Positions 3,671 to 39,182 are shown, counted from the first letter of the stretch. The stretch: DNA of 39,182 nt from a bacterium (GCA_023264615.1 JAHFLU010000002.1:1-39182); one strand, 5' to 3'. Numbers and translations are program-made. The notes: generated from the sequence alone by a model not told the origin.

Positions 3671-3760
3671 TAGTGTATCAATACATTAAAGTATCAACAA
3701 ATGGTATAGTAGTGTGTACGGGAATGGATTGGGAGGTAGTATGGTTATAACTTTCTCCGT

Positions 3761-6518: not shown

Positions 6519-6526
6519 AGCCGTCT

Positions 6527-6736
6527 TTAATCTATAAGCTCTGCCCACCAAATGGAGACTTGAACGATAAGAAAGCAGAGAGCGTAGAGGGGTGAGAGAA
6601 GGGCAAAAAGCATACGCGTTTTAAAGGTGCGTTTTTCAAAAAGCCCTGCCCACCAGTCCCATGTTGCAGCAACAAAAAAAGCGACGGGGATGAAAACAAT
6701 CCAGAGAAGAACATAGAGTGTACGCCGAATAAACAT
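6527..6736 (-). CDS. Small two-TM membrane protein, unknown function
   Basis: 69-aa ORF with two hydrophobic helices (LYVLLWIVFIPVAFFVAA; MLFALLSPLYALCFLIVQV). No motif recognised. Confidence 0.4.
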   Translation of the reverse strand: MFIRRTLYVLLWIVFIPVAFFVAATWDWWAGLFEKRTFKTRMLFALLSPLYALCFLIVQVSIWWAELID

Positions 6737-6756
6737 AGTGATGTTGTATGTGTGTT

Positions 6757-7767
6757 TTAGGTATGTGCACGGGGAGCAGTGATCTGACCTTTTGGATAGC
6801 CGAGGCGAAAGAAAAATTGCGGACGCACATGCGGTATCCCGAGTATTTTTTGCAGCTGCACAGAAGATTCACCGATTTGGATGGCGGCAGTCATGGGGTC
6901 GGTTGACATATGATGGTCAGCGGCCTCAAGCGCGAATCGCTCAAACATTTGTCCCGCTTTTACCCAATATTCGGGTGTATCCTGTGATGTGCTGATAACC
7001 ACAAATATTGGGGTATGTTCGATGAGAAGGGCGCGGTCTGCTTTTTCTCGAAATCTGTTGATGTTAAAAAAGTTGCCGACGAGTGGCGCGAGTTGTGCAA
7101 GAAAGCTTTTGTCGAATGCGGCCATGCCAAGGGGCGGTTCATCCGTATTTTTTTTGAGATAGTGCGCTAGCTGTTTCTGAAATTCCGGATCGTCGAGTGC
7201 AGCAATTTCTGCTTGTATGATGAGGTCTGCAACGAGTCCTCTTTTTGCCGGTTCAGTGATGATGTCGAGACGAACACTATCGTTGCTCATCTTGTGCAAT
7301 TCTGCAAGCAATACGGAGTCGGGGAGGTCTTTTTTATATTCGCCGCGATGTATCTGCGGACGCAGAATAGCTTCGATAAGCCTTGCAGCATTCGTATCGT
7401 TTTCTGCAGTACCCGGGGCTTTTTCTGTACATTCGATGTCGAGATCTTCTGTTCCTGCTGTACTGCCGATGAGGTAGGTAACATGGGTACTATAACCGAA
7501 ATAGGCTGCAGCGATGAGAATATTTTCGAGAGCTACGCCCATGCTGATATGAAGTTGTCGATGTTCCACATCGCTTATTTCAAGTGCGCGGGAGAGGTCA
7601 GGAATGAGACGGATAGTGTTGTTTGTGATCGTGAAATTCCACGGCTCCTTATTGTGGCTTGATGGTGCAAAGACGGCATAGCGTACAAGGAAACGCAGCC
7701 TCTGCTCATTCCCCGTGAGGGCGTTGAACATCTCGCGGCTGATATTCAATGATTTTTCGTCGGGCAT
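6757..7767 (-). CDS. Nitroreductase-family FMN oxidoreductase (long, Acg-like two-lobed type)
   Basis: 336 aa. The N-terminal 'RYAVFAPSSHNKEPWNF' resembles the nitroreductase FMN-binding start. The length fits the duplicated Acg-type architecture. Confidence 0.6.
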   Translation of the reverse strand: MPDEKSLNISREMFNALTGNEQRLRFLVRYAVFAPSSHNKEPWNFTITNNTIRLIPDLSRALEISDVEHRQLHISMGVALENILIAAAYFGYSTHVTYLIGSTAGTEDLDIECTEKAPGTAENDTNAARLIEAILRPQIHRGEYKKDLPDSVLLAELHKMSNDSVRLDIITEPAKRGLVADLIIQAEIAALDDPEFQKQLAHYLKKNTDEPPLGMAAFDKSFLAQLAPLVGNFFNINRFREKADRALLIEHTPIFVVISTSQDTPEYWVKAGQMFERFALEAADHHMSTDPMTAAIQIGESSVQLQKILGIPHVRPQFFFRLGYPKGQITAPRAHT

Positions 7768-7827
7768 GTGTCCTCTATTTTTACAGACAGAGCTCTTATT
7801 TGCAACGAGCGCGACGGAAGAGGGGGT

Positions 7828-9760: not shown

Positions 9761-12700
9761 CTACTCTCCCGTGAGAGCGCTGATCCGTCTTTGCATCTCT
9801 GCAAGCGTGTCTGCAAGAGAGGTGAGGACAGATGCGTTCATATGTGCGGGATTTGTTGTATAGGAGTTGATCGTCTCATTGACACTCTCAAGTTGTGAGG
9901 CGATAGAGGCAATTTGGGTAGTGCGCTCTGGGATACGAGCGCCGAGTGCAGGGAGCACTGTTGCACTGCCGACGAGATAGTTCTCGACACTCCAGCCATC
10001 AGCGCCGGTAGCGTAGTCGATATTCCACCAGGTAAAGGCATTTGCTATGGTGGGACCTGCGATAATGGTACCGAGCTGCTCAAGGGTGAACTGCTTGCCA
10101 AGGACTGCGCAGAGTGTACCGGCACAGGAGCGGACATTGAGGGGGCCATTCCCTACTTTGATGGTATCACCTACCTTAAACTTCAGTGTCTTTGCGCTGA
10201 CAGAGAAGGATCGTGCACTCAGGTTGCCTGCGGCATCATAGGCAGAAACCGTGTACGTGTAGGTAGTAAGAGGTGTGAGCATCGTGTCTGCATACGTAGT
10301 GGTGGTTGTTCTCGCTATCTTAAGACCATTGCGATAGACATCGTATCCTACGACACCGACGGCATCAGTCGATGCGCTCCATGAGAGAGTGACCGCGGCT
10401 GAGGAGACGGGGGTAGCTTTCAGATTGAGAGGGACCGTAGGGGGAGTAGTGTCTATGGGAAGAGTACCGAAGAGTTTAATCTCTGCTGCAGCAGTCCATG
10501 GGTTAGCATTGACTTCGCTTACAGCAACAAACTTGATGTAGAGAGCATTCCGTGCGGTGAAGTTGACACGTTTCTCCTCTGCGCTGTTGAGGAACGTTCC
10601 GGTAGCAACGGCAAGGCCCCAGTTCACACCGTCAGTGCTTAAATAGAGCGTGTAGCCTTTCACGTTGCCGTTGACCTCAGGTACGTCCTGTCGGGGAAGG
10701 TAGCTTAAGCCTGAGACAGAGTATGTGCTGTCGAGCTTGAGGACGATGGTATGGGGATGCGGTGGAGAGGCGATGCCGAGTGGGTTGCCAAGAGAATCAG
10801 TCCACTCAGTCACCCACTTGGTGGCTGGGTTAGCATCGATTGCGTTCGTCGCTGCGCCGTTTTCTCCCACGAGTTCCTCACTGTCCACGGAGAAGACGGA
10901 GAGGTGTGTGGAGAGGATAGGGAGAGGATTCCGAACCGTTACCGTAAGGGGGAGAGAAGTTGCTTTGTTTCCTGCAGCGTCTCGTGTCAGAGCAGTGATG
11001 GTATATGAGCCGTTTGGAACTGTTGTCGTGTTCCAGCCGCCGGTGAGAGTGAAAGGAGAGGGAGCAGTGGTGTCTTCGGGGCCCAGGGGCTGGTTGACCA
11101 TGCCCGTGCCAGAGAGGAAGAACTGCACTCCCACAACAGCAATGTTGTCCGAAGAATTAGCGGAGACAGGAACGGTGCCGGAGACGACTGCTCCCAGTAT
11201 GGGTGCGGTCATGGAGACCGTAGGGGGAGTGGTATCAGGCGGTACCATAATGCTTTGGATCTCCGATGCGCTCAACGCTCGGTTGTAGAGACGGACATCA
11301 TCGATCGTACCGTTCAAGTATTCACCAAACTGGCTGGCACCGATCTGAAGGATACCGGTAGTGTTTACGGGGGAAACAGAGGAGAGAGCAGTGGCTACTT
11401 GCATACCATCTTTGTATAGACGCAGCGTTGTACCGTCAAAGGTCAGGACAAGGTGAGCCCAGATATTAGCGGCAAGAGGTGTGGGAGTGCATGCCACGGT
11501 AGTAGAGACGCCATCGCTTATGCCACCTATTGGTGCGCCCGTGGCACAGTACGTGTTCGAGCCTGCATAGAGGAAGTAGGTATAGTTTTTAACGATGATG
11601 GAGCGGAAGTTCGTGATGACTACGGCGGGCTTAACCCAGGCAGCGAGGGTGAAAGGACTCGTGAGGTCGACTGAAGCAGAGTCAGGAACTCCGATGTACT
11701 GATTGATGCCGTTTAAGAAGATGGCGCCTCCTACTTTGCCTATGGTCCAGATGGGAGCGTTGATGAGCGTGCCGTTCTGAACTCCGTCTGCTGTGGCGGA
11801 GTCTTTGGCTGTGATGCCGGAAGCATCGTCAAAGCGGAGGTGGACGAGCGGGGTGAGCGCTGGGGGGACAATCGTGGAAGAGACCACCGTGCCACTTAAG
11901 GTCAGATTTCCCCAGAGATTGGGACGAAAATAACTTCCGGTAGTAATCAAATTCATCCAGTCGAATTGCTTGCTGATCCCATTATCTCGGTCGTTGTTTC
12001 CAAGCAACAGCCCGAGGACTTTGTTCGCGGCAGGTAGTGTATTCATCGTCGACCATGGAAGGGCGATTTCCATGGTGTAGCCGGTTAAGCTCGTCACAGT
12101 TTTAACGATGGGGCCGGCCGGACTCACGAGGTTATGGATATTCATCGCGAAAGAAAAATCATTCGCATCCATCGCGGTTGATTTGTTGTTTAACGTGTCC
12201 AGATAGATTTCCGCGCCGTCGTCTTGGTAGTATTGAAGATCGGCTGCCTCGAGTTTGGAGTCGGTGACTTGATACGCGAGATACAGATTTTGATTGTCCC
12301 AAAGGCCGAAGACTTTCACCTGATTGTCGCTTTGGGCTGAATTTGAGAACGAGACGGAATTCGCCTGCGACCAGATAGCTTCTGAAAGATTGCCATCAAT
12401 AACAATGGGAACATCGGTTTTGAAGGCGGTGAGGTTATTATTCACGGGAACAACGGGAACACTCGAAGCGTTGACACTAATTGTTACACTAGCACTCCCG
12501 CTTCCTCCCGACCCCGTACACGTCAGTGAATACAGCGTTGTCGCTGTTGGAAAAACGACAAATGATCCGAAAAGCTGTTGAACACCAGACCATCCGCCGG
12601 ATGTGCTGCAGTTCGTTACGTTCGTTGATGACCAGTTCAGCGTCGAGGACTGACCGGAGGTGATCGTGAGAGAGGATGCGGTGAGAGTGACTGTAGGGGC

Positions 12701-14062
12701 GGGGGGAACCAAAACGCTGCTGCCTCCAAATTCATACGCGCCGATGTCGTAGACCACGCCTTGGGGGCGGGAACGGCCGTCGATGTCGGTGGTAATGCCG
12801 AGAGAGGAGAGGTTCATACCTGCGTCGATCGCGGGAGAGCCGGCCTGGAGGTGGAAGTCCGCGCCGGCGGGGTTGAGGAAGACATTTGCGGCGCTTGCCG
12901 CTTTAGTACAGCCAATTGTGAAGGGAGCACTAAGAGAGTCGCAGATGTTCGCGGCAAAATCGAGATTGGTTGTATTTTGGTCAAGAATGTTCCACTTGTG
13001 ACCGATGACAATGTTATTTTTTACCCTGACACCACTTCCGTCGGGCCAGATACCGATTTCGCCGTTGTTGTACACGGAGTTGTTGTAGACATCTGTTCCA
13101 CCGTTCGCATGAATGCCGTCTAAGTTGTTATACACAAGATTGTTGTAGATGTGATTGCCCGGGTGGGCGACGATTCCCCAATTGTTGTGATTGTTGTAAA
13201 AAGATGAATTGCGGATCGTATTCCTCGTCGACGTACACCCTTCACAGGTGAGCTGGATACCGTTGCCGCTATTGTCATGCGAGGAGACCTGTTCGATCAG
13301 ATGATCAGTTCCAGTGATATAAAGCCCGTGCGGACACGGTTGGCCATCATCGTTACGATGGCCGACACACGGCGAACCATCCCTGTTAAATCTAAAGTCG
13401 TGTATGTGCAGATTGCGCATTATGTGAAAACTCCCCGACGTGATTATTCCTTCACCGTTGCCGTTCATGAGTTCAGCGTTTTGAACAACCATATGGTCAC
13501 CATCTACGCTGTACCCGTTTCCCGATCTATTGTCGGTTGTTTGCGTCTGGAAGCCCGCATTTACATTGATTCCGTCAACAGTGACGTAACTCCCGCCTAA
13601 ACTAACGACTCCTCCCCCTCCCGGGTAACCAAAAAACATCGGTTGTAATAATACCCGCTCGCCAGCCGCCGCTCTGATGATTGTCGGAGCTCCAGCCGTC
13701 CCGCTGGGGACGGCGACAGTGACGGCTGTATTGAATGAGGCAATGATCTCGTTGTACGTGCCGCCGCCGATAATGAGCGTATCCCCACCCGCCATACAGG
13801 CGATGCCGGCGTTGATGGTGAGTTTCGGTCCCTGGCCGCAGGGCGTACTGTTATTCCCGGACTTCGAAACAAAATACGTCGCCGCCAACGCCGATGAACT
13901 GAAAACAAACCAGGGTAGAATAACACCGAACACCACGCCGAGTAAAAGCTCAGCGGCTCGCATCGTGTGCCTTTCTTGTACGTGTGCATCCGTCGTATCA
14001 AAACAACTACTCTTGTTACGCTTCGCTGTAGGTAAAAAGGAGGAAGCAATAGATTTAAGCAT
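9761..14062 (-). CDS. Giant secreted multidomain protein. N-to-C order: beta-helix, Ig/PKD-like, CBM9-like, LamG, Ig-like, F5/8-type-C, FN3, SH3b, helical tail
   Basis: 1433-aa ORF. The likely start is Met34 (ATG 13963), giving the signal peptide MRAAELLLGVVFGVILPWFVFSSSALA. Parallel beta-helix repeats are 'HIYNNLVYNN..VYNNSVYNN' ending 'DIDGRSRPQG.VYDIGAYEF'. 'DDVRLYNRALSASEIQ' is LamG/ConA-like. 'AIDANPATKWVTEW' is discoidin-like. 'PPTVPLNLKATP..VTLSWSAS..GYDVYRNG' is FN3. 'FKVGDTIKV..LNVRSCAG' is SH3b. Confidence 0.85.
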   Translation of the reverse strand: MLKSIASSFLPTAKRNKSSCFDTTDAHVQERHTMRAAELLLGVVFGVILPWFVFSSSALAATYFVSKSGNNSTPCGQGPKLTINAGIACMAGGDTLIIGGGTYNEIIASFNTAVTVAVPSGTAGAPTIIRAAAGERVLLQPMFFGYPGGGGVVSLGGSYVTVDGINVNAGFQTQTTDNRSGNGYSVDGDHMVVQNAELMNGNGEGIITSGSFHIMRNLHIHDFRFNRDGSPCVGHRNDDGQPCPHGLYITGTDHLIEQVSSHDNSGNGIQLTCEGCTSTRNTIRNSSFYNNHNNWGIVAHPGNHIYNNLVYNNLDGIHANGGTDVYNNSVYNNGEIGIWPDGSGVRVKNNIVIGHKWNILDQNTTNLDFAANICDSLSAPFTIGCTKAASAANVFLNPAGADFHLQAGSPAIDAGMNLSSLGITTDIDGRSRPQGVVYDIGAYEFGGSSVLVPPAPTVTLTASSLTITSGQSSTLNWSSTNVTNCSTSGGWSGVQQLFGSFVVFPTATTLYSLTCTGSGGSGSASVTISVNASSVPVVPVNNNLTAFKTDVPIVIDGNLSEAIWSQANSVSFSNSAQSDNQVKVFGLWDNQNLYLAYQVTDSKLEAADLQYYQDDGAEIYLDTLNNKSTAMDANDFSFAMNIHNLVSPAGPIVKTVTSLTGYTMEIALPWSTMNTLPAANKVLGLLLGNNDRDNGISKQFDWMNLITTGSYFRPNLWGNLTLSGTVVSSTIVPPALTPLVHLRFDDASGITAKDSATADGVQNGTLINAPIWTIGKVGGAIFLNGINQYIGVPDSASVDLTSPFTLAAWVKPAVVITNFRSIIVKNYTYFLYAGSNTYCATGAPIGGISDGVSTTVACTPTPLAANIWAHLVLTFDGTTLRLYKDGMQVATALSSVSPVNTTGILQIGASQFGEYLNGTIDDVRLYNRALSASEIQSIMVPPDTTPPTVSMTAPILGAVVSGTVPVSANSSDNIAVVGVQFFLSGTGMVNQPLGPEDTTAPSPFTLTGGWNTTTVPNGSYTITALTRDAAGNKATSLPLTVTVRNPLPILSTHLSVFSVDSEELVGENGAATNAIDANPATKWVTEWTDSLGNPLGIASPPHPHTIVLKLDSTYSVSGLSYLPRQDVPEVNGNVKGYTLYLSTDGVNWGLAVATGTFLNSAEEKRVNFTARNALYIKFVAVSEVNANPWTAAAEIKLFGTLPIDTTPPTVPLNLKATPVSSAAVTLSWSASTDAVGVVGYDVYRNGLKIARTTTTTYADTMLTPLTTYTYTVSAYDAAGNLSARSFSVSAKTLKFKVGDTIKVGNGPLNVRSCAGTLCAVLGKQFTLEQLGTIIAGPTIANAFTWWNIDYATGADGWSVENYLVGSATVLPALGARIPERTTQIASIASQLESVNETINSYTTNPAHMNASVLTSLADTLAEMQRRISALTGE

Positions 14063-22092: not shown

Positions 22093-22133
22093 GGAAAAAG
22101 AGATACCGGGCAATCGACGTGTGGATTGCCCGG
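22093..22133 (-). terminator. Intrinsic terminator insulating the accessory cluster from infA
   Basis: 10-bp stem CCGGGCAATC / GATTGCCCGG (22106-22115 / 22124-22133) with an 8-nt loop. On the minus strand it is followed by TATCTCTTTTTCC. It starts 10 nt after the stop at 22143. Confidence 0.7.
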
Positions 22134-22142
22134 TTATTGTTG

Positions 22143-23168
22143 CTATCGGCCGTCTTCTTCTGTGGTTGTGCCGAGGCCCGACAGATTTTTTGGTACGACA
22201 CGACGACGATTCGGCATGAATCTTGGAGCGCGAGGAGCGCGTGAGAGTGTGACAAGGAGCGTCGGCAGCTCGCCGGTGCGCTTTGCTTCGTTAAACTTTG
22301 CAATGGCTTTCGGCGCCATCCCATGCATCACGAGATACCGCGATGACTTTGTGAGATGATCGCGCAACCACGAGGTATGCGACTCATTTTTCGGATCAAT
22401 CTCGCCAGATCGCACCGCAAAAAAGACAACTTGCTTTACTTCATCCGCCACACCGCTCCAATTGACGCGGCCAACACCCATGCCATTTTTCGCCAGCGCC
22501 TTCGTCGATTCCAGAGGATCCGCCGGATAGATAGACTGAGCATCTACTCCGACCGAAACCAACTCATACGGAGTGCTGGAGTCATCGTAATAGATGTTAT
22601 CTTCTGCGCTATCACGGCCTTCTTCCAGGCCCATGATATATTCAATCGTGAGATCACGATTGATACTACCATCGCCATTGATCACGATGATCGGAACACC
22701 GAGACGATTCTCAACCTGGTCCATGACCATGAGGAACATGTTCCGGACTTTCGGATTATACCCGGCGACAATCGCCGGCACAGAGATCATGCTTGAGAGA
22801 TCCATTCCTCCCATGCCTGTATTGCCGGCCATCCCGGCAACCATAAACATCGAGAGCATGCTTGGATCCATCCCGAGCGAAGATGCAAAATTGTTGACCT
22901 GCGCAGGTGATGGTTTCACCCCGTCAGGAATTTCGGCATCGGGATCTGTTTCACCATTTCCCGCAACTGTCACCAGAGGCGGAGCTGGCGCAAAAGCTGC
23001 AGCTACTTTTGCAGCGGTGACCATACCACATCCGGTGACCTCCTTGATCTGTGCTGACGTTAAAAACGCCATGTCAGACTCAAGGTTGACGCCCTCCTCG
23101 ACAAGTTTGGCAATTTGAACGTCAGAAATGCCTAGCCCGGTAAGTTTTTCCTGAAATGCTGTGTCCAT
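22143..23168 (-). CDS. Orphan protein: HhH-like N-terminus, Met/Gly-rich linker, globular C-domain, basic tail
   Basis: The ATG at 23168 is preceded by AAGGGG 8 nt upstream; the track start 23177 is a GTG. 341 aa. 'LTGLGISDVQIAKLV' and 'VTGCGMVTAAKVAAAF' look like helix-hairpin-helix units. 'MLSMFMVAGMAGNTGMGGMDLSSM' is low complexity. The C-terminus is 'SRAPRAPRFMPNRRRVVPKN'. No family recognised. Confidence 0.7.
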   Translation of the reverse strand: MDTAFQEKLTGLGISDVQIAKLVEEGVNLESDMAFLTSAQIKEVTGCGMVTAAKVAAAFAPAPPLVTVAGNGETDPDAEIPDGVKPSPAQVNNFASSLGMDPSMLSMFMVAGMAGNTGMGGMDLSSMISVPAIVAGYNPKVRNMFLMVMDQVENRLGVPIIVINGDGSINRDLTIEYIMGLEEGRDSAEDNIYYDDSSTPYELVSVGVDAQSIYPADPLESTKALAKNGMGVGRVNWSGVADEVKQVVFFAVRSGEIDPKNESHTSWLRDHLTKSSRYLVMHGMAPKAIAKFNEAKRTGELPTLLVTLSRAPRAPRFMPNRRRVVPKNLSGLGTTTEEDGR

Positions 23169-23313
23169 ACGACACACCCCTTAATTTAGAGAGATTTTTC
23201 AACCATTGACAGAACACGCTGATAACGACACTAACCCAATTTTATTGATTTGTCAAATTTCAACTGTCCGCTCCTCTTTCTATGAGAACATGCGTAACCT
23301 ATCGTACGTTTCT

Positions 23314-23350
23314 CTAAAAAAGTAAAGGCGATGCTGTTTCAGCATCGCCT
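23314..23350 (-). terminator. Intrinsic terminator after the PurA-like gene
   Basis: 11-bp stem AGGCGATGCTG / CAGCATCGCCT (23326-23336 / 23340-23350) with a 3-nt loop. On the minus strand it is followed by TTACTTTTTTAG. Confidence 0.7.
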
Positions 23351-23369
23351 AGATACTACCGATATGCAT

Positions 23370-24776
23370 TTATATGCATATCTTGTCACGTTCGGTTGGC
23401 CCGAAAGATACCATTCGTACGGGAACCCCGAGCTTTTCCTGCAGTACTGTCCCGCAAAGAGCAATCATTTCTTTTTTTGACATATGCGACATATCATATG
23501 TCGTCGTTTTTGGACGGCACGATTCGAGTACCTTACCTGCCTCCTCCATCATCTGGAGATGCTCTTCGTTACCGAGTAAACGGTTTACGTAGAGATGTCC
23601 GCGCGGATTAAAAAAGAATGGCTCACGTTGGTGGATATCTCCATAATCTGTGCAAATAGACCACACGCCATTTTTTTCAATCTGATCAAACCATGTGAGA
23701 GCGATTCCGTCGAATGCCTTTGTCCCTCCGCATACTTCTATCGCATAACGTAACAACACGATGTCGAGCGGACCAACACGCACTTTTCCCTGCCATCTGT
23801 TTTCTTCCTTGTGGCTACCGGGAAGGAGTGTTTCGTTCATGCTGGGATCTTCTGTCGGCATCGGCCCTGCGCCGTGGCGAATCGAGTATGCGCGTGTGAC
23901 GCCAAGATGCACGATTTCGTCTCTATAGCCACATTCGTAAAGTAAGGGAAACACCGTTACATTTGGAATCGTTCGTAATTTAGAGGTGTGCGGGGCAAAA
24001 CCAAAATACTTGTCGGTGAGAACTCCGTGCGAACTTTCAACGACCGCAACACCCTCGCGTGCAAGTACATCTGTCTGGAGATAGTCACTACCTACAATGT
24101 TTACGAGCTGTGTCATTTCCCGAAAACCGTTGGTTGTCACCCCCGAGAAATTTTCGTTGAAAAGCATCGTTGTAAGTTGGTTTGCATCTGCGCGGTCGGC
24201 TTCGAGAAATGCTTGGGTTTTGAGCTCGAGAATTGGGCGCAGTTCACGTACTTTTTGCCGTCGCACGTCTTCAAGCATACTGCACAGATCTCGCCCTTTC
24301 AGGTCGCGTACTCGTATCGCGTACTGTGGAGACACCTCTGCATCGAGATAGGCTTCTCCGACACCGGTCCCGATTGTTCCGCGCGGGTTATCTCTTCGCG
24401 CAAGTTCGCGCAGCTGTGTGGACATGGTATGAAATGGGGTGGAACAAAGAGTATTTTCGTCAACCGTCATGAGGTCAAAGATATTTTGAACGCCACAGGT
24501 ATATTGGAGCATCCTGCCTTCGTGGACGAGACCCAAAGGATCGATCACCATATTGCGTGTAATGTGTGTTCGCGTTCCCTCAAGCGTTCCACAGCCAAAA
24601 AAACTAAAGTTGAATGACAGGCCACCCGATGTACGTACACCATGACTTCCTTGTGAACCGCCTACCTTGATAATCGTATGGGCCCTGCGATAGGTGGACA
24701 GCTTGTGGATAACACTACCCTTGCCGCCATCACCGGGACCGAGGTCGGTTACGACATACACTTTGCTGGTCGACAT
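23370..24776 (-). CDS. Adenylosuccinate synthetase (PurA)-family enzyme, divergent
   Basis: 468 aa. 'VVTDLGPGDGGKGS' (P-loop GDEGKG type), 'GSHGV', 'GTIGTGVGEAY', 'VESSHGVLTD', 'TRAYSIRHGAGPMPTE' and the C-terminal 'VSFGPTERD' are collinear with PurA motifs. Several substrate motifs are altered (see findings). Confidence 0.8.
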   Translation of the reverse strand: MSTSKVYVVTDLGPGDGGKGSVIHKLSTYRRAHTIIKVGGSQGSHGVRTSGGLSFNFSFFGCGTLEGTRTHITRNMVIDPLGLVHEGRMLQYTCGVQNIFDLMTVDENTLCSTPFHTMSTQLRELARRDNPRGTIGTGVGEAYLDAEVSPQYAIRVRDLKGRDLCSMLEDVRRQKVRELRPILELKTQAFLEADRADANQLTTMLFNENFSGVTTNGFREMTQLVNIVGSDYLQTDVLAREGVAVVESSHGVLTDKYFGFAPHTSKLRTIPNVTVFPLLYECGYRDEIVHLGVTRAYSIRHGAGPMPTEDPSMNETLLPGSHKEENRWQGKVRVGPLDIVLLRYAIEVCGGTKAFDGIALTWFDQIEKNGVWSICTDYGDIHQREPFFFNPRGHLYVNRLLGNEEHLQMMEEAGKVLESCRPKTTTYDMSHMSKKEMIALCGTVLQEKLGVPVRMVSFGPTERDKICI

Positions 24777-24801
24777 CTGTATAACTCCCCTATTTATGAT
24801 A

Positions 24802-24828
24802 TGGGGGTAGCTTTATGAGCTACCCCCA
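24802..24828 (-). promoter_or_regulatory. Perfect 11-bp intercistronic hairpin between the vWA and PurA-like genes
   Basis: TGGGGGTAGCT (24802-24812) / AGCTACCCCCA (24818-24828) with a 5-nt loop. No U-tract follows on the minus strand. It is followed by the SD AGGGGAG and the ATG at 24776. Confidence 0.5.
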
Positions 24829-24842
24829 CGGTTACCTAGCGT

Positions 24843-26021
24843 TTAGAGCCACTGGTCTTCTTCGTCTGGATGACCTGTAGGCACAACATCTTTTGAGACA
24901 ACGGGAGTTGCCGTAGGAGTACTACTGCCAATTGGCCAAAGATCGCTCTTGTTGGTAAACCTTGCTCCTTTAAGCGGAAGCTTGCTGAAATTTGGAAGCA
25001 TTGTCTGTGCGCCAATGGGAATGTGGCGGACAGATGATTTTATGAGCTGTGCGTCAACACGGCTTACGTTGTTAGTATTGCCTACCCCGCTGCCTCGCAG
25101 AAACTGTTCGAGATTCTGTAGGTCAAGCGTTCCTTCGGTCAGGCCGATGATGGCCGCCTGCAACTGCGGCAGCAGTGCTGTTCTTGTCGATTTGACGATT
25201 CGCTCCGGACCAAAAATAGGGGTCCAAAAGTGGGTTGTTTCACTTGCATCACCAACCTGAATCAGAAACGCATGCGCCCTCGTGACAAGAGATGCTACGA
25301 CTTCGCGCGTCTCCGGAACATCTTGAGCGTTGATCTGGTGGCCGTTTTCGAGGGCTTTGGCAAATACATCCTCACCAAATATTGTCTTGAGCCAGCCTGC
25401 ATCAACGCTGTGACGACCAGGAGCGTCAGTCACCGTGAAATCGTACGATTTCAACCCGTACTTGTTAATATCGGCGGCTGTGAGATACGCCGCACCGAAT
25501 AATCCATACTGCGGGTCTTCAGCCGTATCGCCGCCATCCCGTGCCGGAACCATATACCGTAGTTGTTCGGCGATTCGAACGTCCATCTCTGCCTGGGAAC
25601 GGCAGAGCACAGGCCCCTTGCCTTTCTGTTGGTCCTGGATATCCCCAAAGATGCTCATGATCACTTGGGGGTCATAGCGTTTCAGTACTGCATTGTTTCC
25701 GGTTACCAATAGGTCATAAATCGACGGTAACACATCAATGGCTACATCGACATTACTCCCCATGCTTCCGGTGGTGTCGAGGCGGGACTCGATGAGCATT
25801 GCGACGCCCCGCAGAAGCTCAAAACACCCCTTCCGTGGTTCAAACCAAGAAATCGACCGGCGTATAACACCGTATCCTTTCGGATCAACGAGCTCATGGA
25901 TGGTGTGGGACATCTCATATTGTTGTTCGGCAACATGAGAGGCCCTACCCCTGCTATCTCCATCTCTCGATTTCTCGGCGACATGAACAAAGGCTTCTCG
26001 AGACGATGTATATCTGCCCAT
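24843..26021 (-). CDS. von Willebrand factor A (vWA) domain protein with MIDAS motif
   Basis: The start is taken at ATG 26021 (MGRYTSS...), 5 nt after the upstream gene's stop. 'ESRLDTTGSMGSN' (DxTxS MIDAS), 'SIFGDIQD' and 'FTVTDAPG' (the TDG-type last MIDAS Asp). The C-terminal approx. 150 aa are unassigned. Confidence 0.7.
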   Translation of the reverse strand: MGRYTSSREAFVHVAEKSRDGDSRGRASHVAEQQYEMSHTIHELVDPKGYGVIRRSISWFEPRKGCFELLRGVAMLIESRLDTTGSMGSNVDVAIDVLPSIYDLLVTGNNAVLKRYDPQVIMSIFGDIQDQQKGKGPVLCRSQAEMDVRIAEQLRYMVPARDGGDTAEDPQYGLFGAAYLTAADINKYGLKSYDFTVTDAPGRHSVDAGWLKTIFGEDVFAKALENGHQINAQDVPETREVVASLVTRAHAFLIQVGDASETTHFWTPIFGPERIVKSTRTALLPQLQAAIIGLTEGTLDLQNLEQFLRGSGVGNTNNVSRVDAQLIKSSVRHIPIGAQTMLPNFSKLPLKGARFTNKSDLWPIGSSTPTATPVVSKDVVPTGHPDEEDQWL

Positions 26022-26026
26022 AATTT

Positions 26027-26857
26027 TCACCCTTGTAGTGGAAATGTGGTATATGGCCAATATTCGCGAGGCCAAAGTGACTCTACGAGTTTATAGAAAT
26101 CTGTATGCGCACGGCTCGCATCATCTTCGCCGCCGCATGCAAGATGATACAAATAACTCGCATACATTCCTTGCGGATCCTGCCCATCCTCATAATACTC
26201 GCCTGTTGTCGCATCACCTCCTAGTGCGATGGTTATGATCGCTGCGGCCTTGGCAATTTGCTCTTTCCGTATATCCGCAGGCACTAAATCTTGATGATAC
26301 GCTGCTGCGGTCATGTCGAAAAAGAGAATGAAATGTTGCTCTCGCTCAATAAGTACGTTGTCTCCGGTCATGCGACCGGGTGAGATATTCTGGCTGTATG
26401 AGAATGCGAGGAATTTAAGCAACTTGCCCATCATCCACGCACTGGTCTTGCAATCAACGCGTACTTTGTCGCGTGTCGTGATATGTCGCACTGGTACGAG
26501 GGTCCGAAGATCCGGAACGGCATGAAAATCGAGAATATTGACCCGGCGCCCACCTTGACGCTCTGAAATAAAGCTCTCGTGCAGATCAGGAAAACAGAGT
26601 TGATAATTCAGAAAAACATTTGGATCGCTTTTCACTGCCATGTACTCGTCTTCCAACAATGCTGCATGACCCCTCATTTCCGAGAGAAATTCTGCTTCAT
26701 CGGCGATGAGGGCATTGTGCTCGGTTGTGGCAGCGATTTTCAAAATATAGCTTTTGTCGCTACCACGACACGAATACAATTTGAAGTTCTTTGTCTTCCC
26801 GAGCGGTTGGAGAATGTCATACGACCCGTTGGGACTTTTAAGAATCTTTTTTTCCAA
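26027..26857 (-). CDS. Protein-kinase-like fold protein (atypical kinase or pseudokinase)
   Basis: The TTG start at 26857 has a strong SD (GAGGAGAAAG) 8 nt upstream. An upstream in-frame ATG hits a stop. Ordered landmarks are 'LGKTKNFKLY', 'YILKIA' (Lys), 'EAEFL' (Glu), 'GDNVLIE' and 'LFFDMT' (Asp). Confidence 0.55.
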   Translation of the reverse strand: MEKKILKSPNGSYDILQPLGKTKNFKLYSCRGSDKSYILKIAATTEHNALIADEAEFLSEMRGHAALLEDEYMAVKSDPNVFLNYQLCFPDLHESFISERQGGRRVNILDFHAVPDLRTLVPVRHITTRDKVRVDCKTSAWMMGKLLKFLAFSYSQNISPGRMTGDNVLIEREQHFILFFDMTAAAYHQDLVPADIRKEQIAKAAAIITIALGGDATTGEYYEDGQDPQGMYASYLYHLACGGEDDASRAHTDFYKLVESLWPREYWPYTTFPLQG

Positions 26858-26905
26858 GCTACTTTCTCCTCATGACAGAGGTATTCAATGACCACATCTT
26901 GTGTA

Positions 26906-26934
26906 CTTATAACAGTATGAATCTATTTTGTCAA
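26906..26934 (-). promoter_or_regulatory. Near-consensus promoter for the kinase-like/vWA/PurA-like operon
   Basis: Read on the minus strand: TTGACA (26934-26929), an exact 17-nt spacer, then TATAAG (26911-26906). It lies about 50 nt upstream of the TTG start at 26857. Confidence 0.5.
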
Positions 26935-26941
26935 TGCTCTA

Positions 26942-26971
26942 TTGACAGAGGAACATTACTTATGTTAGTTT
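26942..26971 (+). promoter_or_regulatory. Possible divergent promoter for the 27030-27683 gene
   Basis: TTGACA (26942-26947), an 18-nt spacer, then TAGTTT (26966-26971). Its -35 box is the mirror arm of the minus-strand -35 (TTGTCAAT-N5-ATTGACA). Confidence 0.3.
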
Positions 26972-27029
26972 CTGAAAAGCCCGTGATTTTAAGCGGTAAA
27001 ATAATAGCTTGGAGTTTGGAGATTTTTTC

Positions 27030-27683
27030 ATGGAAACCGTTTATTCTCCGTCAAATCTGCCCATTTTTGCTCCCCATACGTCTGGCCATGCAATTCCGGT
27101 TCCTGAAGAGCGCATCTGTTGTGCTGTTCCCTATGCGACCAATATTTTAGCGCCTTGGGAACTACAAAAGGCGGCTGTGGGAGCATGGCACATGATTATC
27201 GAACTGGACATGCCGAAAAGAAATGTCACGTTCTGGCCGGAAGGGTATCCTGAAGGGATGCCTCGCTGTGACGAATATTCGAATAATGAGGTGCTTTATA
27301 CGTGTACGCCCCTTGAGGTCATGCAGTATGGGGACAATGAAGCTGCAGACCTGTTGTATCTCACGTATCGGTCATATCCCGGTGTCAAAGTTTTCAAGGT
27401 GAGAAAAACAGTTCCTGTCATTGTCCTCGGACAAGTCACTAGGAATAGTATGTTCCGCACGGCAGAGAGTCTTCTCGGAAAAGCTGCTGCGGTTCCTGCG
27501 GACTCCTACATTTTGAAAAGTCCTCTTGTCGAACAGTATTACTTTAACACTCCAAAAAAGTTCGAGCAGTTGTATGGTGGTGTTATACATCCGGGATCAG
27601 TGCCAAATAAGGCGCTCTGTGATGTAAAAGAGGGATGGGCAAACTTCGGGGTTGATACAAGTTTCTTGCAAAAGCAAAGCTAG
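27030..27683 (+). CDS. Orphan protein, unknown function
   Basis: The ATG at 27030 is preceded by GGAG 8 nt upstream; the track start 27009 is a TTG. 217 aa, soluble-looking, no motif recognised. Confidence 0.55.
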   Translation: METVYSPSNLPIFAPHTSGHAIPVPEERICCAVPYATNILAPWELQKAAVGAWHMIIELDMPKRNVTFWPEGYPEGMPRCDEYSNNEVLYTCTPLEVMQYGDNEAADLLYLTYRSYPGVKVFKVRKTVPVIVLGQVTRNSMFRTAESLLGKAAAVPADSYILKSPLVEQYYFNTPKKFEQLYGGVIHPGSVPNKALCDVKEGWANFGVDTSFLQKQS

Positions 27684-34991: not shown

Positions 34992-35444
34992 TTATCTTGT
35001 TACGGTGATTGTTTTGCCTTGTTCTTCAAATTGAGCATCAACGGTCACGCGTCCGTTAGCAGTTTTGCGTATCATGTAGCCGACACCGTTTACATTTGTT
35101 TTTTGGGGTTCAATCGGTATGGATGTCAAATACTTTTCTCCCCAAACTAATTCGTTGAGGGGAGCGAGGCTTCCCGTCGTACAGGTTGTTGTTGCGGTAT
35201 TAGCAATGCAGATTTCTGTCGTGGTGGTGGTAATACCGGACGGCAGTACGCCGTTGTTGTCGATTGCATACTGATAAACCGCATTGAGAATTGTGGTGAC
35301 GTCAGCTTGACGCTCGGTATTTCTTGTATCGCCGAGTTGCTTGTTGGGGTTAATGGCAACAATAACAATCGCTGCCAATATTCCTATTGCAGCAACGACG
35401 AGAAGTATTTCGAGAAGAGTGAAACCTTTATGAGAGCTTTGCAT
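34992..35444 (-). CDS. Type IV pilin / GspG-like major pseudopilin
   Basis: The start is taken at ATG 35444: 'MQSSHKGFTLLEILLVVAAIGILAAIVIVAI', a class III signal with prepilin-type N-methylation (G|FTLLE). Confidence 0.8.
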   Translation of the reverse strand: MQSSHKGFTLLEILLVVAAIGILAAIVIVAINPNKQLGDTRNTERQADVTTILNAVYQYAIDNNGVLPSGITTTTTEICIANTATTTCTTGSLAPLNELVWGEKYLTSIPIEPQKTNVNGVGYMIRKTANGRVTVDAQFEEQGKTITVTR

Positions 35445-35466
35445 AGTGTATGTATAGGGAGATTTT

Positions 35467-35883
35467 CTAAAAATCAGCGACCTCTTGCCACGATACAATT
35501 TGAATCGTGGGATTAATCTTACTAATAATGACCTTGACCTTTCGTACATTTGTTCCGACACTACCGGAAGCATTGACCACTCTATTTTCTGCTCCCTGGT
35601 TTGCGACAGTATATGAACAGCTGCCTTGTGGGAGAGTGAGGTTGCCGCTGCCGGTAAAGGATGTGGTAGTTCGTATTAGTTCCAGTGCTTCTTCGGTGCA
35701 AGCATTCACAAGGGCTCTTCCTTGATGTGACTGGTCTGCAGAAAAAGTTGTGCGCGACGATTCAATACCAAGAAGAATAAGCGAAAGTGTGATCGTTATC
35801 CCGATTGCTCCGATGATGAGTACACTGACGAGCGTTATATATCCTCCCTCCACCGTAGAATACCACATAGTTTGTTTTTTCAT
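35467..35883 (-). CDS. Minor pseudopilin-like protein (PilX/GspK-like N-terminus)
   Basis: 138 aa. One N-terminal hydrophobic helix, 'GGYITLVSVLIIGAIGITITLSLILL', without the canonical G|F(T/S)LxE. It sits within the pseudopilin operon. Confidence 0.5.
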   Translation of the reverse strand: MKKQTMWYSTVEGGYITLVSVLIIGAIGITITLSLILLGIESSRTTFSADQSHQGRALVNACTEEALELIRTTTSFTGSGNLTLPQGSCSYTVANQGAENRVVNASGSVGTNVRKVKVIISKINPTIQIVSWQEVADF

Positions 35884-35904
35884 ATGAGAGGTGTGGATAA
35901 AAGG

Positions 35905-36459
35905 CTACGGCTGACGAAGTGTTGCCGATCCGGTGAAAGTTTTGGTAAAGGAGTATTCTCTCCGCCCCGCGGTATTATTATACGTCAGTGTAAATTGAAT
36001 TCGAATAGTTCCGGGGGTGTTTATTCGCGAGGTATTTTGAAACGTGAGATTGGAAACAGAGAGACGCGAATTAACGAGTGCAATCGGTGTTGCAACACCT
36101 TCTATAACACGCATCGTGCTACCCTGAAGATCAAAAATCGTTGGATCATTTGCTAGACCGAGAGCATCAAGAGACAGTGTCCCCCCAGTTATTCCTTGTG
36201 TTGGTGCATATATGTTTTCGGAATTTCGGATTGTTTGCGTGATAGTGTGCATTATTTGTAAACCCTGCTGCTCTACTTCGGTAATAGTCTGATTTTTGAT
36301 ACGTGCTTCTATAAGCGATATAAGGAACATTGTGATAACAAGCATGGTAAGGGTTGAGAGGCCAAGGTAAAGCAGGAATTCGAAGAGTGTAAAGCCGGAT
36401 TGTGCTTTCGGGCAAGGAATCTTCGGTGTCGTTTGATGCTTTGGATGATGCATAATCAC
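35905..36459 (-). CDS. Minor pseudopilin (prepilin-type N-terminus)
   Basis: 184 aa. 'AQSGFTLFEFLLYLGLSTLTMLVI'. The start overlaps the upstream stop by 4 nt (ATGA), suggesting translational coupling. Confidence 0.7.
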   Translation of the reverse strand: MIMHHPKHQTTPKIPCPKAQSGFTLFEFLLYLGLSTLTMLVITMFLISLIEARIKNQTITEVEQQGLQIMHTITQTIRNSENIYAPTQGITGGTLSLDALGLANDPTIFDLQGSTMRVIEGVATPIALVNSRLSVSNLTFQNTSRINTPGTIRIQFTLTYNNTAGRREYSFTKTFTGSATLRQP

Positions 36460-37859
36460 TGTGGCGAGATAACAATAAATTCTTCGGCGTCAGACTGGCT
36501 TGCTGCAAAAGCACGGTCAAGGGTTTGACTATACGCGACACCCATAAGCGGGCTTATGCCGAGAACATTCCACTCCCCGAGAAGCGTTGGGGTTGAGGGT
36601 ATCGCAACATTCATGACTTTAAATTCGTTTGCTGGATCGCTTGTTCCGAGAAATGCATAGGTGTTTGTATTTCCCAGGTTGAGAGCAATATCATTGAGTG
36701 TGCCGGATACATCAATAGAACCGATTATTGCGGGCGCACTCGGTGTTGCTGCACTGATGGTAAAAAAGGTGCTCCCTTGTCCGAAAAAGAGTGTTGATCC
36801 GGCATAGGCAATGGTAAGAGCGTCTGTTGTGCCGGGAAGATTAAGCGAACCGACGAGTGTGGGTGAAGAAGGTGTTGCAATATTAAGCACCTGTAATTCC
36901 TGACTATTGTGGTTTGTCGCGATATAAGCGTTGGTACCGGAAACTACCACTTCATTTCCCGTCGTACCCAAATTGAGTGACCCGACAAGAATGGGAGAAT
37001 TGGGATTTGTTGCATCGATAATTAAGAATTCGTCGTCGGTACTGTCGCGTCGAAGAAGGTACGCGGTTGTTCCGACTGCGTACACTCCGTTGCCGTTTGC
37101 GCTACCCGGAGCATCATAGCTACCCACGAATGTTGGATTTGTTGGTATGGTAATGTCAATGATTTGAAGTTCTTGTGTGTCTCTCTTATTTGAAATGTAA
37201 GCGAAATTGCCCGAAATGGCGATATTGGTCGGTTGTCCAGAAAGTTCGAGTGACCCAACTATCGTTGGACTTGCAGGGTTTGCTACATCGATAACAAGAA
37301 AATTTGGACCCTCTTCTCTGCGTGTCATATACGCGTAATTGCCATGGATCTGTACTTTGTCGCCGTCGTCACCCTCGGGAATATTTATGCTTGCAGTTTG
37401 AATCGGACTTGCCCAATTTCCTGTGACATAGGCGATCCAGTTTGTGAGGCGTGTTAGGGCTGATACGTTGCCGCTACGCTGGGGATTTTGCTGCCAGGTC
37501 ACGTTTACTGAAACGGATTTTCGGTTGACCCCTGCAGGAGCGATCACTATTTGGCGCGTAAATATATCTGTACTATCAGGCGTACCAACGAGCGACCACT
37601 GGCCGCTTGCGAGAGATAAACCGTACGTACCGTCGATAAGGTTTGCATACAAGGCATCGCGAATGTTGCGCACAGCCTCAAGTCCTTCTTCAGCAAGCAT
37701 CGTAGCGCGGGCTCGGTTGAGAGCGAGGACGGTAGCTTCTTCTCCATAGAGATAGGCTCCGACAAGTGCCGTTGTAAGGAGTGCGAACAGGGTTCCCGCA
37801 AGGAGTACTTCAATGAGCGAAAAACCATTGGGTGTGTGCAAATTTCTTTTTTTACGCAT
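36456..37859 (-). CDS. Pseudopilin fused to an LVIVD-repeat beta-propeller-like domain
   Basis: 467 aa. A prepilin N-terminus 'PNGFSLIEVLLAGTLFALL', then at least six repeats of the LVIVD type: FLVIDVANPASPTIVGS, LQIIDITIPTNPTFVGS, FLIIDATNPNSPILVGS, LQVLNIATPSSPTLVGS, FFTISAATPSAPAIIGS, FKVMNVAIPSTPTLLGE. Confidence 0.8.
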   Translation of the reverse strand: MRKKRNLHTPNGFSLIEVLLAGTLFALLTTALVGAYLYGEEATVLALNRARATMLAEEGLEAVRNIRDALYANLIDGTYGLSLASGQWSLVGTPDSTDIFTRQIVIAPAGVNRKSVSVNVTWQQNPQRSGNVSALTRLTNWIAYVTGNWASPIQTASINIPEGDDGDKVQIHGNYAYMTRREEGPNFLVIDVANPASPTIVGSLELSGQPTNIAISGNFAYISNKRDTQELQIIDITIPTNPTFVGSYDAPGSANGNGVYAVGTTAYLLRRDSTDDEFLIIDATNPNSPILVGSLNLGTTGNEVVVSGTNAYIATNHNSQELQVLNIATPSSPTLVGSLNLPGTTDALTIAYAGSTLFFGQGSTFFTISAATPSAPAIIGSIDVSGTLNDIALNLGNTNTYAFLGTSDPANEFKVMNVAIPSTPTLLGEWNVLGISPLMGVAYSQTLDRAFAASQSDAEEFIVISPQ

Positions 37860-37864
37860 ATGCG

Positions 37865-38311
37865 TTAATAACTGACCATGCCTTTCCCGTTAATTGCAAC
37901 GGCTCTTGATTCTGCATCAGTGGATGTAAATGTTGTTGTGCCGATTTGTTGTGGAAATCCAGTGAATTTTGTAAACACTACGTCCCCGAGACCTGTGTGG
38001 GAAATGCTTATCGGAATGTCGGATATCTCGTCAAAGTCACTCTGGCGCGCGGCAAAACTTATTCCTTTAAAAAGTATTGTGGTCGTGGCAGTGAGATGCA
38101 CTCCCCATGAAATATCACCGTCAACGGCACGTGTAAGTGCTTGTGCGCGCCGGAGGGTATGTGCGTATGAAGACGAAACAAGGTCAAGATTGTTGCGTAG
38201 TTGAAATGTGTAGTAGAGCGGTATGGATATGCCTGCCATAATGCCAAGGAGAGCGATAACAAGGAGTATCTCGACGAGCGTAAAACCAGGTACTGTTTTT
38301 GTTGTGTACAT
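37865..38311 (-). CDS. Minor pseudopilin (GspH/FimT-like)
   Basis: The start is taken at ATG 38311: 'MYTTKTVPGFTLVEILLVIALLGIMAGI'. The longer track ORF (to 38398) would overlap gspF. Confidence 0.75.
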   Translation of the reverse strand: MYTTKTVPGFTLVEILLVIALLGIMAGISIPLYYTFQLRNNLDLVSSSYAHTLRRAQALTRAVDGDISWGVHLTATTTILFKGISFAARQSDFDEISDIPISISHTGLGDVVFTKFTGFPQQIGTTTFTSTDAESRAVAINGKGMVSY

Positions 38312-38318
38312 ACCTGGC

Positions 38319-39182
38319 TTAGCTGTTGAGTCCGCCGATGAGACTGTATATGGGAAGAATAACGGCAAGCGCCACACCAACAACGCCCATCCAAACAACG
38401 ACGAGCATAAGTGGCTCGAGAACAGTGCTCAGATTTTTTGTTGTTGTATCAGCTCGAATCTCAAATGCCCGTCCAATCTTGAGAAGTATTTTTGCAAGTG
38501 ATCCAGAACGTTCTCCTGCAAAAAGAAGCTGCTGTATTGGTATGGGGATAAGCCTGTTGCTGTGCGGATAGAGTGTAAAACTTTTTTGAAATGAATTGCC
38601 CTCCTCGATGTGTTTGTAGAGGTGTGCGTATAACTTTTGATATCTCGAAAATTCTGTGGCGGTGACAAGGGATTCAAGCGCACGCGTTGCAGGCAAACCT
38701 GCCTCAAGAAGTGTTCCAAGAAGGTAGCCGAACCGCGCGAGCTCGACTTCTTTAATGAGCTTCTTAACTCCCGGAAACGAGAACAACACGTGTTGGCCGA
38801 TAAAATTGGTTCGTGAGAAAATAAAAACGGTGTAAAAAATAAGCACACAAGCTACGAAAAAGAGTGGTACAACGTAGACCCCATAGTTTCCAAGGAAATT
38901 TCCAGCGCCAATAAGTACCTTTGTAATGAATGGAAGGTCAAGTCTAAGCTGGGAGAAAACCAGCGCGAGTTTTGGCAAAATAAACCACGCTATAGCAACA
39001 CCGATGACAAGGGTGAGCATAAGGACCAGGATCGGGTACATCATTGCTGACCGCAGCTTATCCCGAAACATACGATTTTTTTCTTGTTCTGCGGCGACCA
39101 CGGAAAGATTTTGAATCAGTTTTCCCGACTGCTCTCCAAGGCGAACGAGGGCGATAGTATGGTTTGGAAAAAGTTCTGATGC
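38319..39182 (-). CDS. Type II secretion / type IV pilus platform protein GspF/PilC (C-terminal part; 5' end outside the window)
   Basis: The frame stays open to the window edge: '...ASELFPNHTIALVRLGEQSGKLIQNLS' precedes the track ORF. Repeated GspF-domain features are 'FAGERSGSLAKIL', three TM helices and a C-terminal 'LPIYSLIGGL'. Confidence 0.85.
   Translation of the reverse strand, partial: ASELFPNHTIALVRLGEQSGKLIQNLSVVAAEQEKNRMFRDKLRSAMMYPILVLMLTLVIGVAIAWFILPKLALVFSQLRLDLPFITKVLIGAGNFLGNYGVYVVPLFFVACVLIFYTVFIFSRTNFIGQHVLFSFPGVKKLIKEVELARFGYLLGTLLEAGLPATRALESLVTATEFSRYQKLYAHLYKHIEEGNSFQKSFTLYPHSNRLIPIPIQQLLFAGERSGSLAKILLKIGRAFEIRADTTTKNLSTVLEPLMLVVVWMGVVGVALAVILPIYSLIGGLNS

Follow-up and report, generated by a model that had tools for sequence, protein, structure and literature searches.

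A block of genes at positions 22,143 to 27,683 of a 39,182-nucleotide stretch of bacterial DNA (GCA_023264615.1 JAHFLU010000002.1:1-39182, hereafter the window) holds this genome's copy of a conserved operon of Patescibacteria, not a one-off accessory island. Its four same-strand genes, here named A to D, encode a protein-kinase-fold protein, a vWA protein with a metal-ion-dependent adhesion site (MIDAS), a divergent relative of adenylosuccinate synthetase (PurA) and a protein with a helix-hairpin-helix (HhH) N-terminus. The operon probably belongs to the NAD regulon of NrtR, which responds to ADP-ribose. An earlier interpretation, the sequence-only reading, had taken the block for an insulated accessory cluster in the place where secY-adk-map normally precede infA. 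None of secY, adk and map is present in the 39-kb window according to the annotation of its proteins.

The distribution of the genes carries the first part of this finding. Gene C has more than 1300 homologues of 50–57% identity, and the named ones all come from Patescibacteria (Ryan-, Sung-, Pace- and Spechtbacteria and others), where the sources label them adenylosuccinate synthase. B and D have hundreds of homologues each at similar identity, all of them unnamed. The first six genomic contexts had the order A-B-C-D in all cases, followed by a convergent gene E for a protein of about 600 aa with a nucleotidyltransferase (NTase) core of Pol-beta type.

For a wider view, one genome per GTDB species was scanned with B, which gave 146 relatives. 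The best 80 (79 distinct loci) were taken and their open reading frames (ORFs) profile-searched, and they span Paceibacteria, Saccharimonadia, Microgenomates-type and ABY1-type lineages. Species labels such as 'Gammaproteobacteria' on some metagenome-assembled genomes probably reflect mistakes of binning or labelling, and no weight was given to them. C adjoins B in 78 of the 79 loci, A adjoins B in 68–71 and E is convergent downstream in 64–66, and the loci that fall short mostly do so because the contig ends.

The slot after C was occupied by a protein of about 325–520 aa (typically 340–410) in 61 of 66 loci examined, and in the remaining five the candidate is a short ORF where the contig stops. 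The D-slot proteins come in two forms that have only the HhH domain in common, their C-terminal domains being unrelated. In one Saccharibacteria genome (locus L077, 4575-12547), two A-B copies stand in tandem, in the order A-B-C-D, A-B and then E.

Hence the same-strand genes form one functional unit, as had been supposed, and they do travel together outside this genome. The insulated island is replaced by a widely syntenic operon with 50–60% identity across the Patescibacteria classes. The genomes of Patescibacteria are very small, and the conservation of this gene order throughout the surveyed classes makes the operon likely important to them. Horizontal acquisition as an island was rejected on the unremarkable composition (GC content of 0.45–0.53 in the block versus about 0.46 in the flanks) together with the phylum-wide synteny.

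Gene E was not found anywhere in the 39-kb window. In the two closest relatives of D (loci L094 and L095, 72% and 65% identity), E lies convergent directly after D (L094 region 2351-3058). The L095 copy (2964-4856) is split into an N-terminal ORF of 380 aa and an NTase ORF of 233 aa. Since E follows D in the closest relatives and is absent here, the D/infA junction reflects a local rearrangement, in which E was lost or moved elsewhere, rather than an island insertion. The hairpin between D and infA marks the 3′ end of the module, where relatives carry gene E.

The divergent ORF of 217 aa on the other side of A had been counted as a fifth member of the unit. It was dropped as a regulator or partner because no other locus has a counterpart of it beside the cassette. 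It matches no family in Pfam, NCBIfam, PHROGs or PADLOC.

The link to NAD, which the sequence-only reading had missed, comes from the neighbours and from a shared operator-like box. In the first contexts, the module lies among nrtR (NUDIX + WHD_NrtR), nadA, nadB, nadE, nadK, pncA and pncB, and among them a candidate nadD shows only a faint CTP_transf_like match. We clustered all flanking ORFs of the non-redundant loci without any prior. The families obtained were NrtR (17 loci), PncA (9), PncB (8), NadE (7), ADP-ribosyl glycohydrolase (5) and NadK (4). Once A to E and antisense shadows are set aside, no function besides these NAD and ADP-ribose genes recurs in the clustering, and purB is not among the neighbours.

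A 21-bp palindrome, TTAGTGT-N7-ACACTAA, is found upstream of nrtR, pncA, nadE, nadB, nadK and the ADP-ribosyl glycohydrolase gene, and upstream of A as well, even in loci that have no nearby nrtR. At one mismatch or less, the regions upstream of NAD genes have 1.09 copies per kb and those upstream of A have 0.9, compared with 0.04 per kb overall and 0–0.04 in front of B, C and D. Upstream of A, perfect copies are 46-fold enriched and copies with up to two mismatches 21-fold, the latter preceding A in 29 of 72 loci. The box has the same form as the published NrtR operator, whose 21-bp palindrome contains a GT-N7-AC core and overlies promoters, and from which ADP-ribose releases the repressor (PMC2330246).

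The module resembles the NrtR regulons in the palindrome over promoters, in the nearness to nrtR, pncAB, nadE and nadK and in ADP-ribose as the presumed inducer. It differs from them in that none of its genes is a known gene of NAD biosynthesis, salvage or transport, and in that the window's own box is degenerate and nrtR is not nearby. This box has two mismatches to TAGTGT-N7-ACACTA, keeps the GT-N7-AC core intact and sits exactly over the −10 box of A. About 0.75 two-mismatch matches are expected per 39-kb window and about 0.003 in the 172-bp spacer. Its position is suggestive of a putative operator.

Gene C is the presumed catalytic core. It matches the Pfam family Adenylsucc_synt (PF00709) over its full length at 1e-33. 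Its scores on the NCBIfam purA equivalogs are 85.2 and 90.1 bits, far below the cut-offs of 395.55 (TIGR00184) and 402 (NF002223). No match at E <= 0.1 was obtained with the PurZ model NF038379 (cut-off 300), on which only a paralogue in locus L040 scores, with 38 bits. This paralogue, a second PurA-like gene of a phage-like subtype, lies 1.3 kb upstream of the module there (6355-7782, minus strand). It keeps Q224 and L228, has K331H and reaches 166 bits versus the purA cut-off of 402.

Forty family members were aligned with E. coli PurA, whose numbering is used here. The family keeps G12, D13, G15, K16, G17, H41, D333, S414 and G416, and the GTP-dependent phosphoryl-transfer machinery looks intact by its residues. 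The changes are N38Q, T129I/V, Q224H, V273H, T300Y/W, T301Q, deletion of R303, R305V and K331W. R143 aligns to E, D or Q in a region of uncertain alignment, and Thr239 to S or T.

We take V273, T300, T301, R303 and R305 to be the aspartate-binding positions. N38, T129, R143′ and T239 are presumably those of the IMP 5′-phosphate, and we group Q224 with the phosphate and base positions. On this alignment, both the aspartate pocket and the IMP-phosphate pocket are remodelled. Most of the replacing residues (Q38, H224, H273, Q301 and W331) do not vary within the family, a sign of another defined ligand and not of decay.

Could C still be a housekeeping enzyme? It would then be a divergent adenylosuccinate synthetase (IMP + Asp + GTP) serving ordinary purine salvage, with unrelated hypothetical proteins as neighbours. 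Bacteria of the Candidate Phyla Radiation (CPR) depend on nucleotide salvage, the homologues bear the enzyme's name in the sources, and C shares with PurA the fold, the full-length family match, the GTP P-loop GDxGKG, Asp13 and His41 as well as Asp333 and Ser414 for guanine specificity. However, scores of 85–90 bits fall far short of cut-offs near 400, the presumed aspartate positions are all replaced in a family-invariant manner, and so are the presumed 5′-phosphate positions T129 and R143. Moreover, C is always encoded with the vWA protein and usually with the pseudokinase, and this strict linkage to A and B (78/79 loci) recurs in three phage groups. The gene also appears to stand under an NrtR-type operator instead of purine control, and purB is missing from its neighbourhood. 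Ordinary salvage is accordingly unlikely, and the sequence-only reading was correct to separate this PurA homologue from housekeeping PurA.

The operon has counterparts of its core genes in phages. The best viral match of C is phrog_1211 with 146 bits, and the viral genes most closely related to it are those called 'PurA-like' in about 200 mycobacteriophages of Bixzunavirus (cluster C-type), with 30% identity to gp273 of phage I3 over the full length. Four successive genes of I3 were compared with the CPR profiles. The 'kinase' gp270, with a Pkinase domain and HG replacing HRD, matches the A profile at 2.9e-22, the hypothetical protein gp271, with LDVTGS, matches the B profile at 3.9e-12, the small protein gp272 matches no CPR profile and the PurA-like gp273 matches the C profile at 1.2e-73. 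By eye, gp270 (L089 4469-5599) has a J-domain-like N-terminal extension of about 100 aa with HPD, in which Pfam called no DnaJ domain.

The phage records with B and those with C are identical (201 of Mycobacterium, 10 of Rhizobium and 6 of Vibrio phages), and in the mycobacteriophages the kinase-like A is also present beside the pair. In Rhizobium phage RHph_TM2_3B, genes for a ComF-like phosphoribosyltransferase (PRTase), a HAD hydrolase and a NUDIX protein (annotated NMN adenylyltransferase/NUDIX) lie a few genes from the pair, as does a NADAR gene in Vibrio phage phiKT1024. The phage vWA family is phrog_2971, of 'unknown function'. The phage and CPR C enzymes have T300W, T301Q and the R303 deletion in common. 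Hence the B-C(-A) core is evolutionarily portable and found in phages.

PurZ is the phage succino-amino-deoxyadenylate synthase. Like PurZ and the Bixzunavirus genes, C is a PurA paralogue recruited outside housekeeping AMP synthesis, and it shares with the Bixzunavirus genes the kinase-like and vWA neighbours besides the three changes above. It differs from PurZ in lacking the NF038379 match and in that no DatZ/MazZ-type partners were seen. The label of phrog_1211, '2-aminooxy adenylosuccinate synthetase', was transferred as a name and reflects no tested function.

Several other phage genes were seen near the pair. A conserved protein of about 240–264 aa with an extremely Met/Gly-rich C-terminus is encoded one or two genes upstream of the vWA gene in the Rhizobium and Vibrio phages (L092 5774-6568, L093 5048-5761). 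These Met-rich proteins were rejected as D analogues, as the hhalign probability is at most 2.4% and the resemblance compositional only. In phiKT1024, a gene annotated as TROVE domain-containing protein lies about 2.3 kb downstream of the PurA-like gene (L093 10397-11905). Separately, a 36-kb IMG/VR 'viral' contig ends with a CPR-type A-B-C set (L091 7165-10571), and it may stem from a phage or prophage of CPR bacteria or else be a misclassified CPR fragment.

The other module proteins were named by no library. Profile searches of all five window proteins against Pfam, NCBIfam, PHROGs and PADLOC returned only the PurA match and weak kinase matches, and A, B, D and E received no functional name in any of these libraries. 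The fold assignments of the sequence-only reading (vWA, kinase-like and HhH) hold nonetheless. A profile of A built from seven homologues matches the CK2-alpha catalytic domains (E = 2.8e-6), and A matches phrog_3043 'kinase' at 2.5e-7. Its family comprises 275 clusters at 50% identity.

The residue set of an active Ser/Thr kinase (beta3 Lys, alphaC Glu, HRD Asp and DFG Asp) is not complete in A. The HRD Asp is missing from 50 of 50 aligned members, the beta3 Lys position has K in 30 and Q in 18, and the alphaC Glu is present in 30. The DFG-like Asp181 (49/50) and the catalytic-loop Asn167 (40/50) are retained. A is a pseudokinase-type protein because the HRD Asp is absent and the beta3 Lys is not conserved, and so the phospho-signalling sensor switch suggested earlier is unlikely.

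For B, there was no match in Pfam, and none of its 624 homologues has a Pfam domain or a name. An AlphaFold2 model from a 33-sequence alignment (pLDDT 87.8, pTM 0.87) was compared with the PDB by Foldseek, which found integrin beta-I and vWF-A3 domains (E about 4e-5, probability 1.0). In the alignment of homologues the MIDAS is invariant, with the DTTGS motif, D82, T84, S86 and D199. B is thus modelled as a vWA fold with a predicted metal site of DxSxS type, and its C-terminus has a conserved W-L after a disordered linker.

The N-terminal 60 residues or so of D match the RAD51 N-terminal HhH domain. Its C-terminal domain is well predicted and has no match in the PDB or BFVD. The E profile found only the minimal NTase core (HI0073/MNT) in the PDB.

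A vWA gene beside a kinase-fold gene recalls the TerY-P triad, which consists of vWA, Ser/Thr kinase and PP2C, and the vWA-containing NTP-dependent conflict systems. The sequence-only reading had drawn this analogy. The module would then be an anti-phage or inter-genomic conflict system in which a vWA/kinase sensor controls an NTP-dependent effector. Domains of the vWA, kinase-like and Pol-beta NTase types often occur in conflict systems, conflicts are frequently fought over NAD/ADP-ribose chemistry, and phage homologues exist.

However, searches of A to E with PADLOC-DB 2.0 gave no match at E <0.02, and nothing beyond generic kinase models. The module also has no Ter genes, no active kinase, no recognisable toxic effector domain and no defence-island behaviour. 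No neighbour family recurs in the 79 loci beyond A to E and the NAD/ADP-ribose genes, so there is no conserved phosphatase partner. The synteny in nearly all surveyed loci, at 50–60% identity across classes, fits a vertically inherited core function, not a patchy island, and the GC content does not deviate. Where the NAD genes are near, the module sits among housekeeping genes and has their repressor box in common. These features make a conflict system quite improbable, and the analogy does not survive.

Other SIMIBI-class NTPases act as GTP-driven switches or assembly factors, and C might have become one, no longer metabolic, joined with the pseudokinase and the MIDAS protein in a complex of structural or chaperone-like kind and linked to NAD only through regulation. 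The remodelled substrate pockets beside a kept GTP site, the typical protein-protein interaction modules A and B, the W-L tail of B and the interchangeable domains in the D slot agree with such a role, but it is hardly to be expected of a family in which the catalytic base D13 and acid H41 and the replacing pocket residues H224, H273 and Q301 are all invariant, the last three arguing for a defined ligand, and in which the phage pair lies near nucleotide-metabolism enzymes.

The membership in the NAD regulon that we favour suggests the following mechanism. As NAD is consumed and ADP-ribose rises, NrtR would leave its operator and the operon would be transcribed. C would be the catalyst, using GTP, D13 and H41 as PurA does. 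It would phosphorylate the oxo group of a purine-like or pyridine-like nucleotide and then couple a nucleophile other than L-aspartate. Its substrate would have no free 5′-phosphate bound in the PurA fashion.

The pseudokinase A and the vWA/MIDAS protein B would serve C as scaffold or gate without being catalytic themselves. The Pol-beta NTase E, missing here, and D may be accessories that vary with the lineage. The output would probably replenish or repair the adenine-nucleotide/NAD pool where purines cannot be made de novo.

Several observations weigh against the regulon membership and this mechanism. A NAD gene is within 10 kb in only about 27% of the loci, and the box, at two mismatches or less, is found in only about 40%. 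In the 39-kb window there is no nrtR and no NAD gene, and the box with its two mismatches is not significant window-wide, as 14 of 100 shuffles give two or more matches. For C, the residues near E. coli R143 could be aligned only with uncertainty. The roles of A, B, D and E are deduced only from folds and missing catalytic residues.

A more specific version is rather doubtful, though worth stating. The module might be a nucleotide-repair or NAD-reconstitution route common to ultra-small CPR bacteria and large phages. Here, a MIDAS/pseudokinase-gated, GTP-driven ligase of PurA type would, on the ADP-ribose signal of NAD loss, turn a hypoxanthine- or pyridone-type nucleotide (e.g. IMP, ITP or deamino-NAD) directly into an adenine- or NAD-competent form with a non-aspartate nitrogen donor and no adenylosuccinate lyase. 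Phages would thereby restore pools drained or deaminated by host immunity.

The gene combination matches no system in any library searched, as had been anticipated. Pfam, NCBIfam, PHROGs and PADLOC place the module in no described system, which does not exclude a prior description in the literature. Our best reading is a nucleotide-ligase module under probable NrtR control, and an undescribed one to judge by the absence of names in these libraries.

By their placement in the NrtR/NAD regulon, these 'dark matter' genes acquire a physiological setting that can be tested. That about 200 mycobacteriophages, as well as jumbo-type phages of Rhizobium and Vibrio, carry the vWA and PurA-like core, in the latter two with NUDIX, PRTase or NADAR genes close by, suggests a nucleotide chemistry that is portable. 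Such a chemistry would bear on NAD homeostasis, on the dependence of episymbionts on their hosts and possibly on phage counter-measures against NAD or nucleotide depletion. The labels 'adenylosuccinate synthetase' in CPR genomes and '2-aminooxy adenylosuccinate synthetase' in phages are probably wrong.

Features of the module and its surroundings in the window (positions counted from the first letter of the window; a point marks a feature without strand).
Feature	Position	Strand	Remarks
Gene A, 276-aa protein-kinase-fold protein, predicted pseudokinase	26027..26857	-	TTG start, AGGAG Shine-Dalgarno
Gene B, 392-aa vWA/MIDAS protein, conserved N-terminal extension, disordered tail ending W-L	24843..26021	-	
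Gene C, 468-aa divergent PurA-family GTP-dependent ligase, presumed catalytic core	23370..24776	-	PF00709 match
Gene D, 341-aa protein, N-terminal RAD51-type (HhH)2, Met-rich linker, C-terminal domain, Arg-rich tail	22143..23168	-	
Divergent ORF, 217 aa	27030-27683	+	ORF list
Degenerate NrtR-type 21-bp palindrome, putative operator	26898..26918	.	overlaps -10 hexamer upstream of A
Putative A-B-C promoter, TTGACA, 17 nt, TATAAG	26906..26934	-	read by eye
Hairpin and T-run between C and D	23326..23350	-	terminator scan
Hairpin, 11-bp stem, T-runs on both strands, between D and infA	22105..22134	.	terminator scan

The ORF list, the homologue alignments and the terminator scan agree with the sequence-only reading on the coordinates of the five ORFs, their start codons and both hairpin terminators. 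The alignments with homologues put the start of A at TTG 26857, with AGGAG just before it, that of B at ATG 26021 (MGR...) rather than at an upstream TTG, and that of D at ATG 23168 (MDTA...). A and B are separated by 5 nt. As for the back-to-back promoters that had been proposed, the one upstream of A can be read by eye, and the automatic promoter scan called neither, the A promoter being missed because its −10 hexamer ends in G.

The C-D spacer (23169-23369, minus strand) contains a hairpin terminator and then a promoter-like TTGACA site, and the same arrangement occurs in locus L006 (1610-1800). The distance between C and D is 20–50 nt in most other species. D of this lineage may be partly uncoupled from A-B-C, with its own transcript. 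Rfam searches of the whole window and of the region found no riboswitch and no leader. A sucA-II match in the B-C spacer (24767-24846, minus strand) was discarded as probably due to chance, with 29.5 bits versus a gathering score of 70 (E = 7e-4).

The remaining window encodes ribosomal proteins, rpoA, dnaK/dnaJ and two-component, pilus-type and surface-protein genes. Among these is a multi-domain surface-type protein of 1433 aa (9761-14062, minus strand) with Laminin_G_3, CBM9, F5/8 type C, Big and fn3 domains, whose gene lies in the most GC-rich stretch of the window (0.51–0.55 versus about 0.46). At 34992-39101 (minus strand), pilin-like genes with N-methyl motifs are accompanied by an LVIVD beta-propeller protein and a T2SS-F platform gene, and by its domains this cluster looks like type IV pilus-type machinery.

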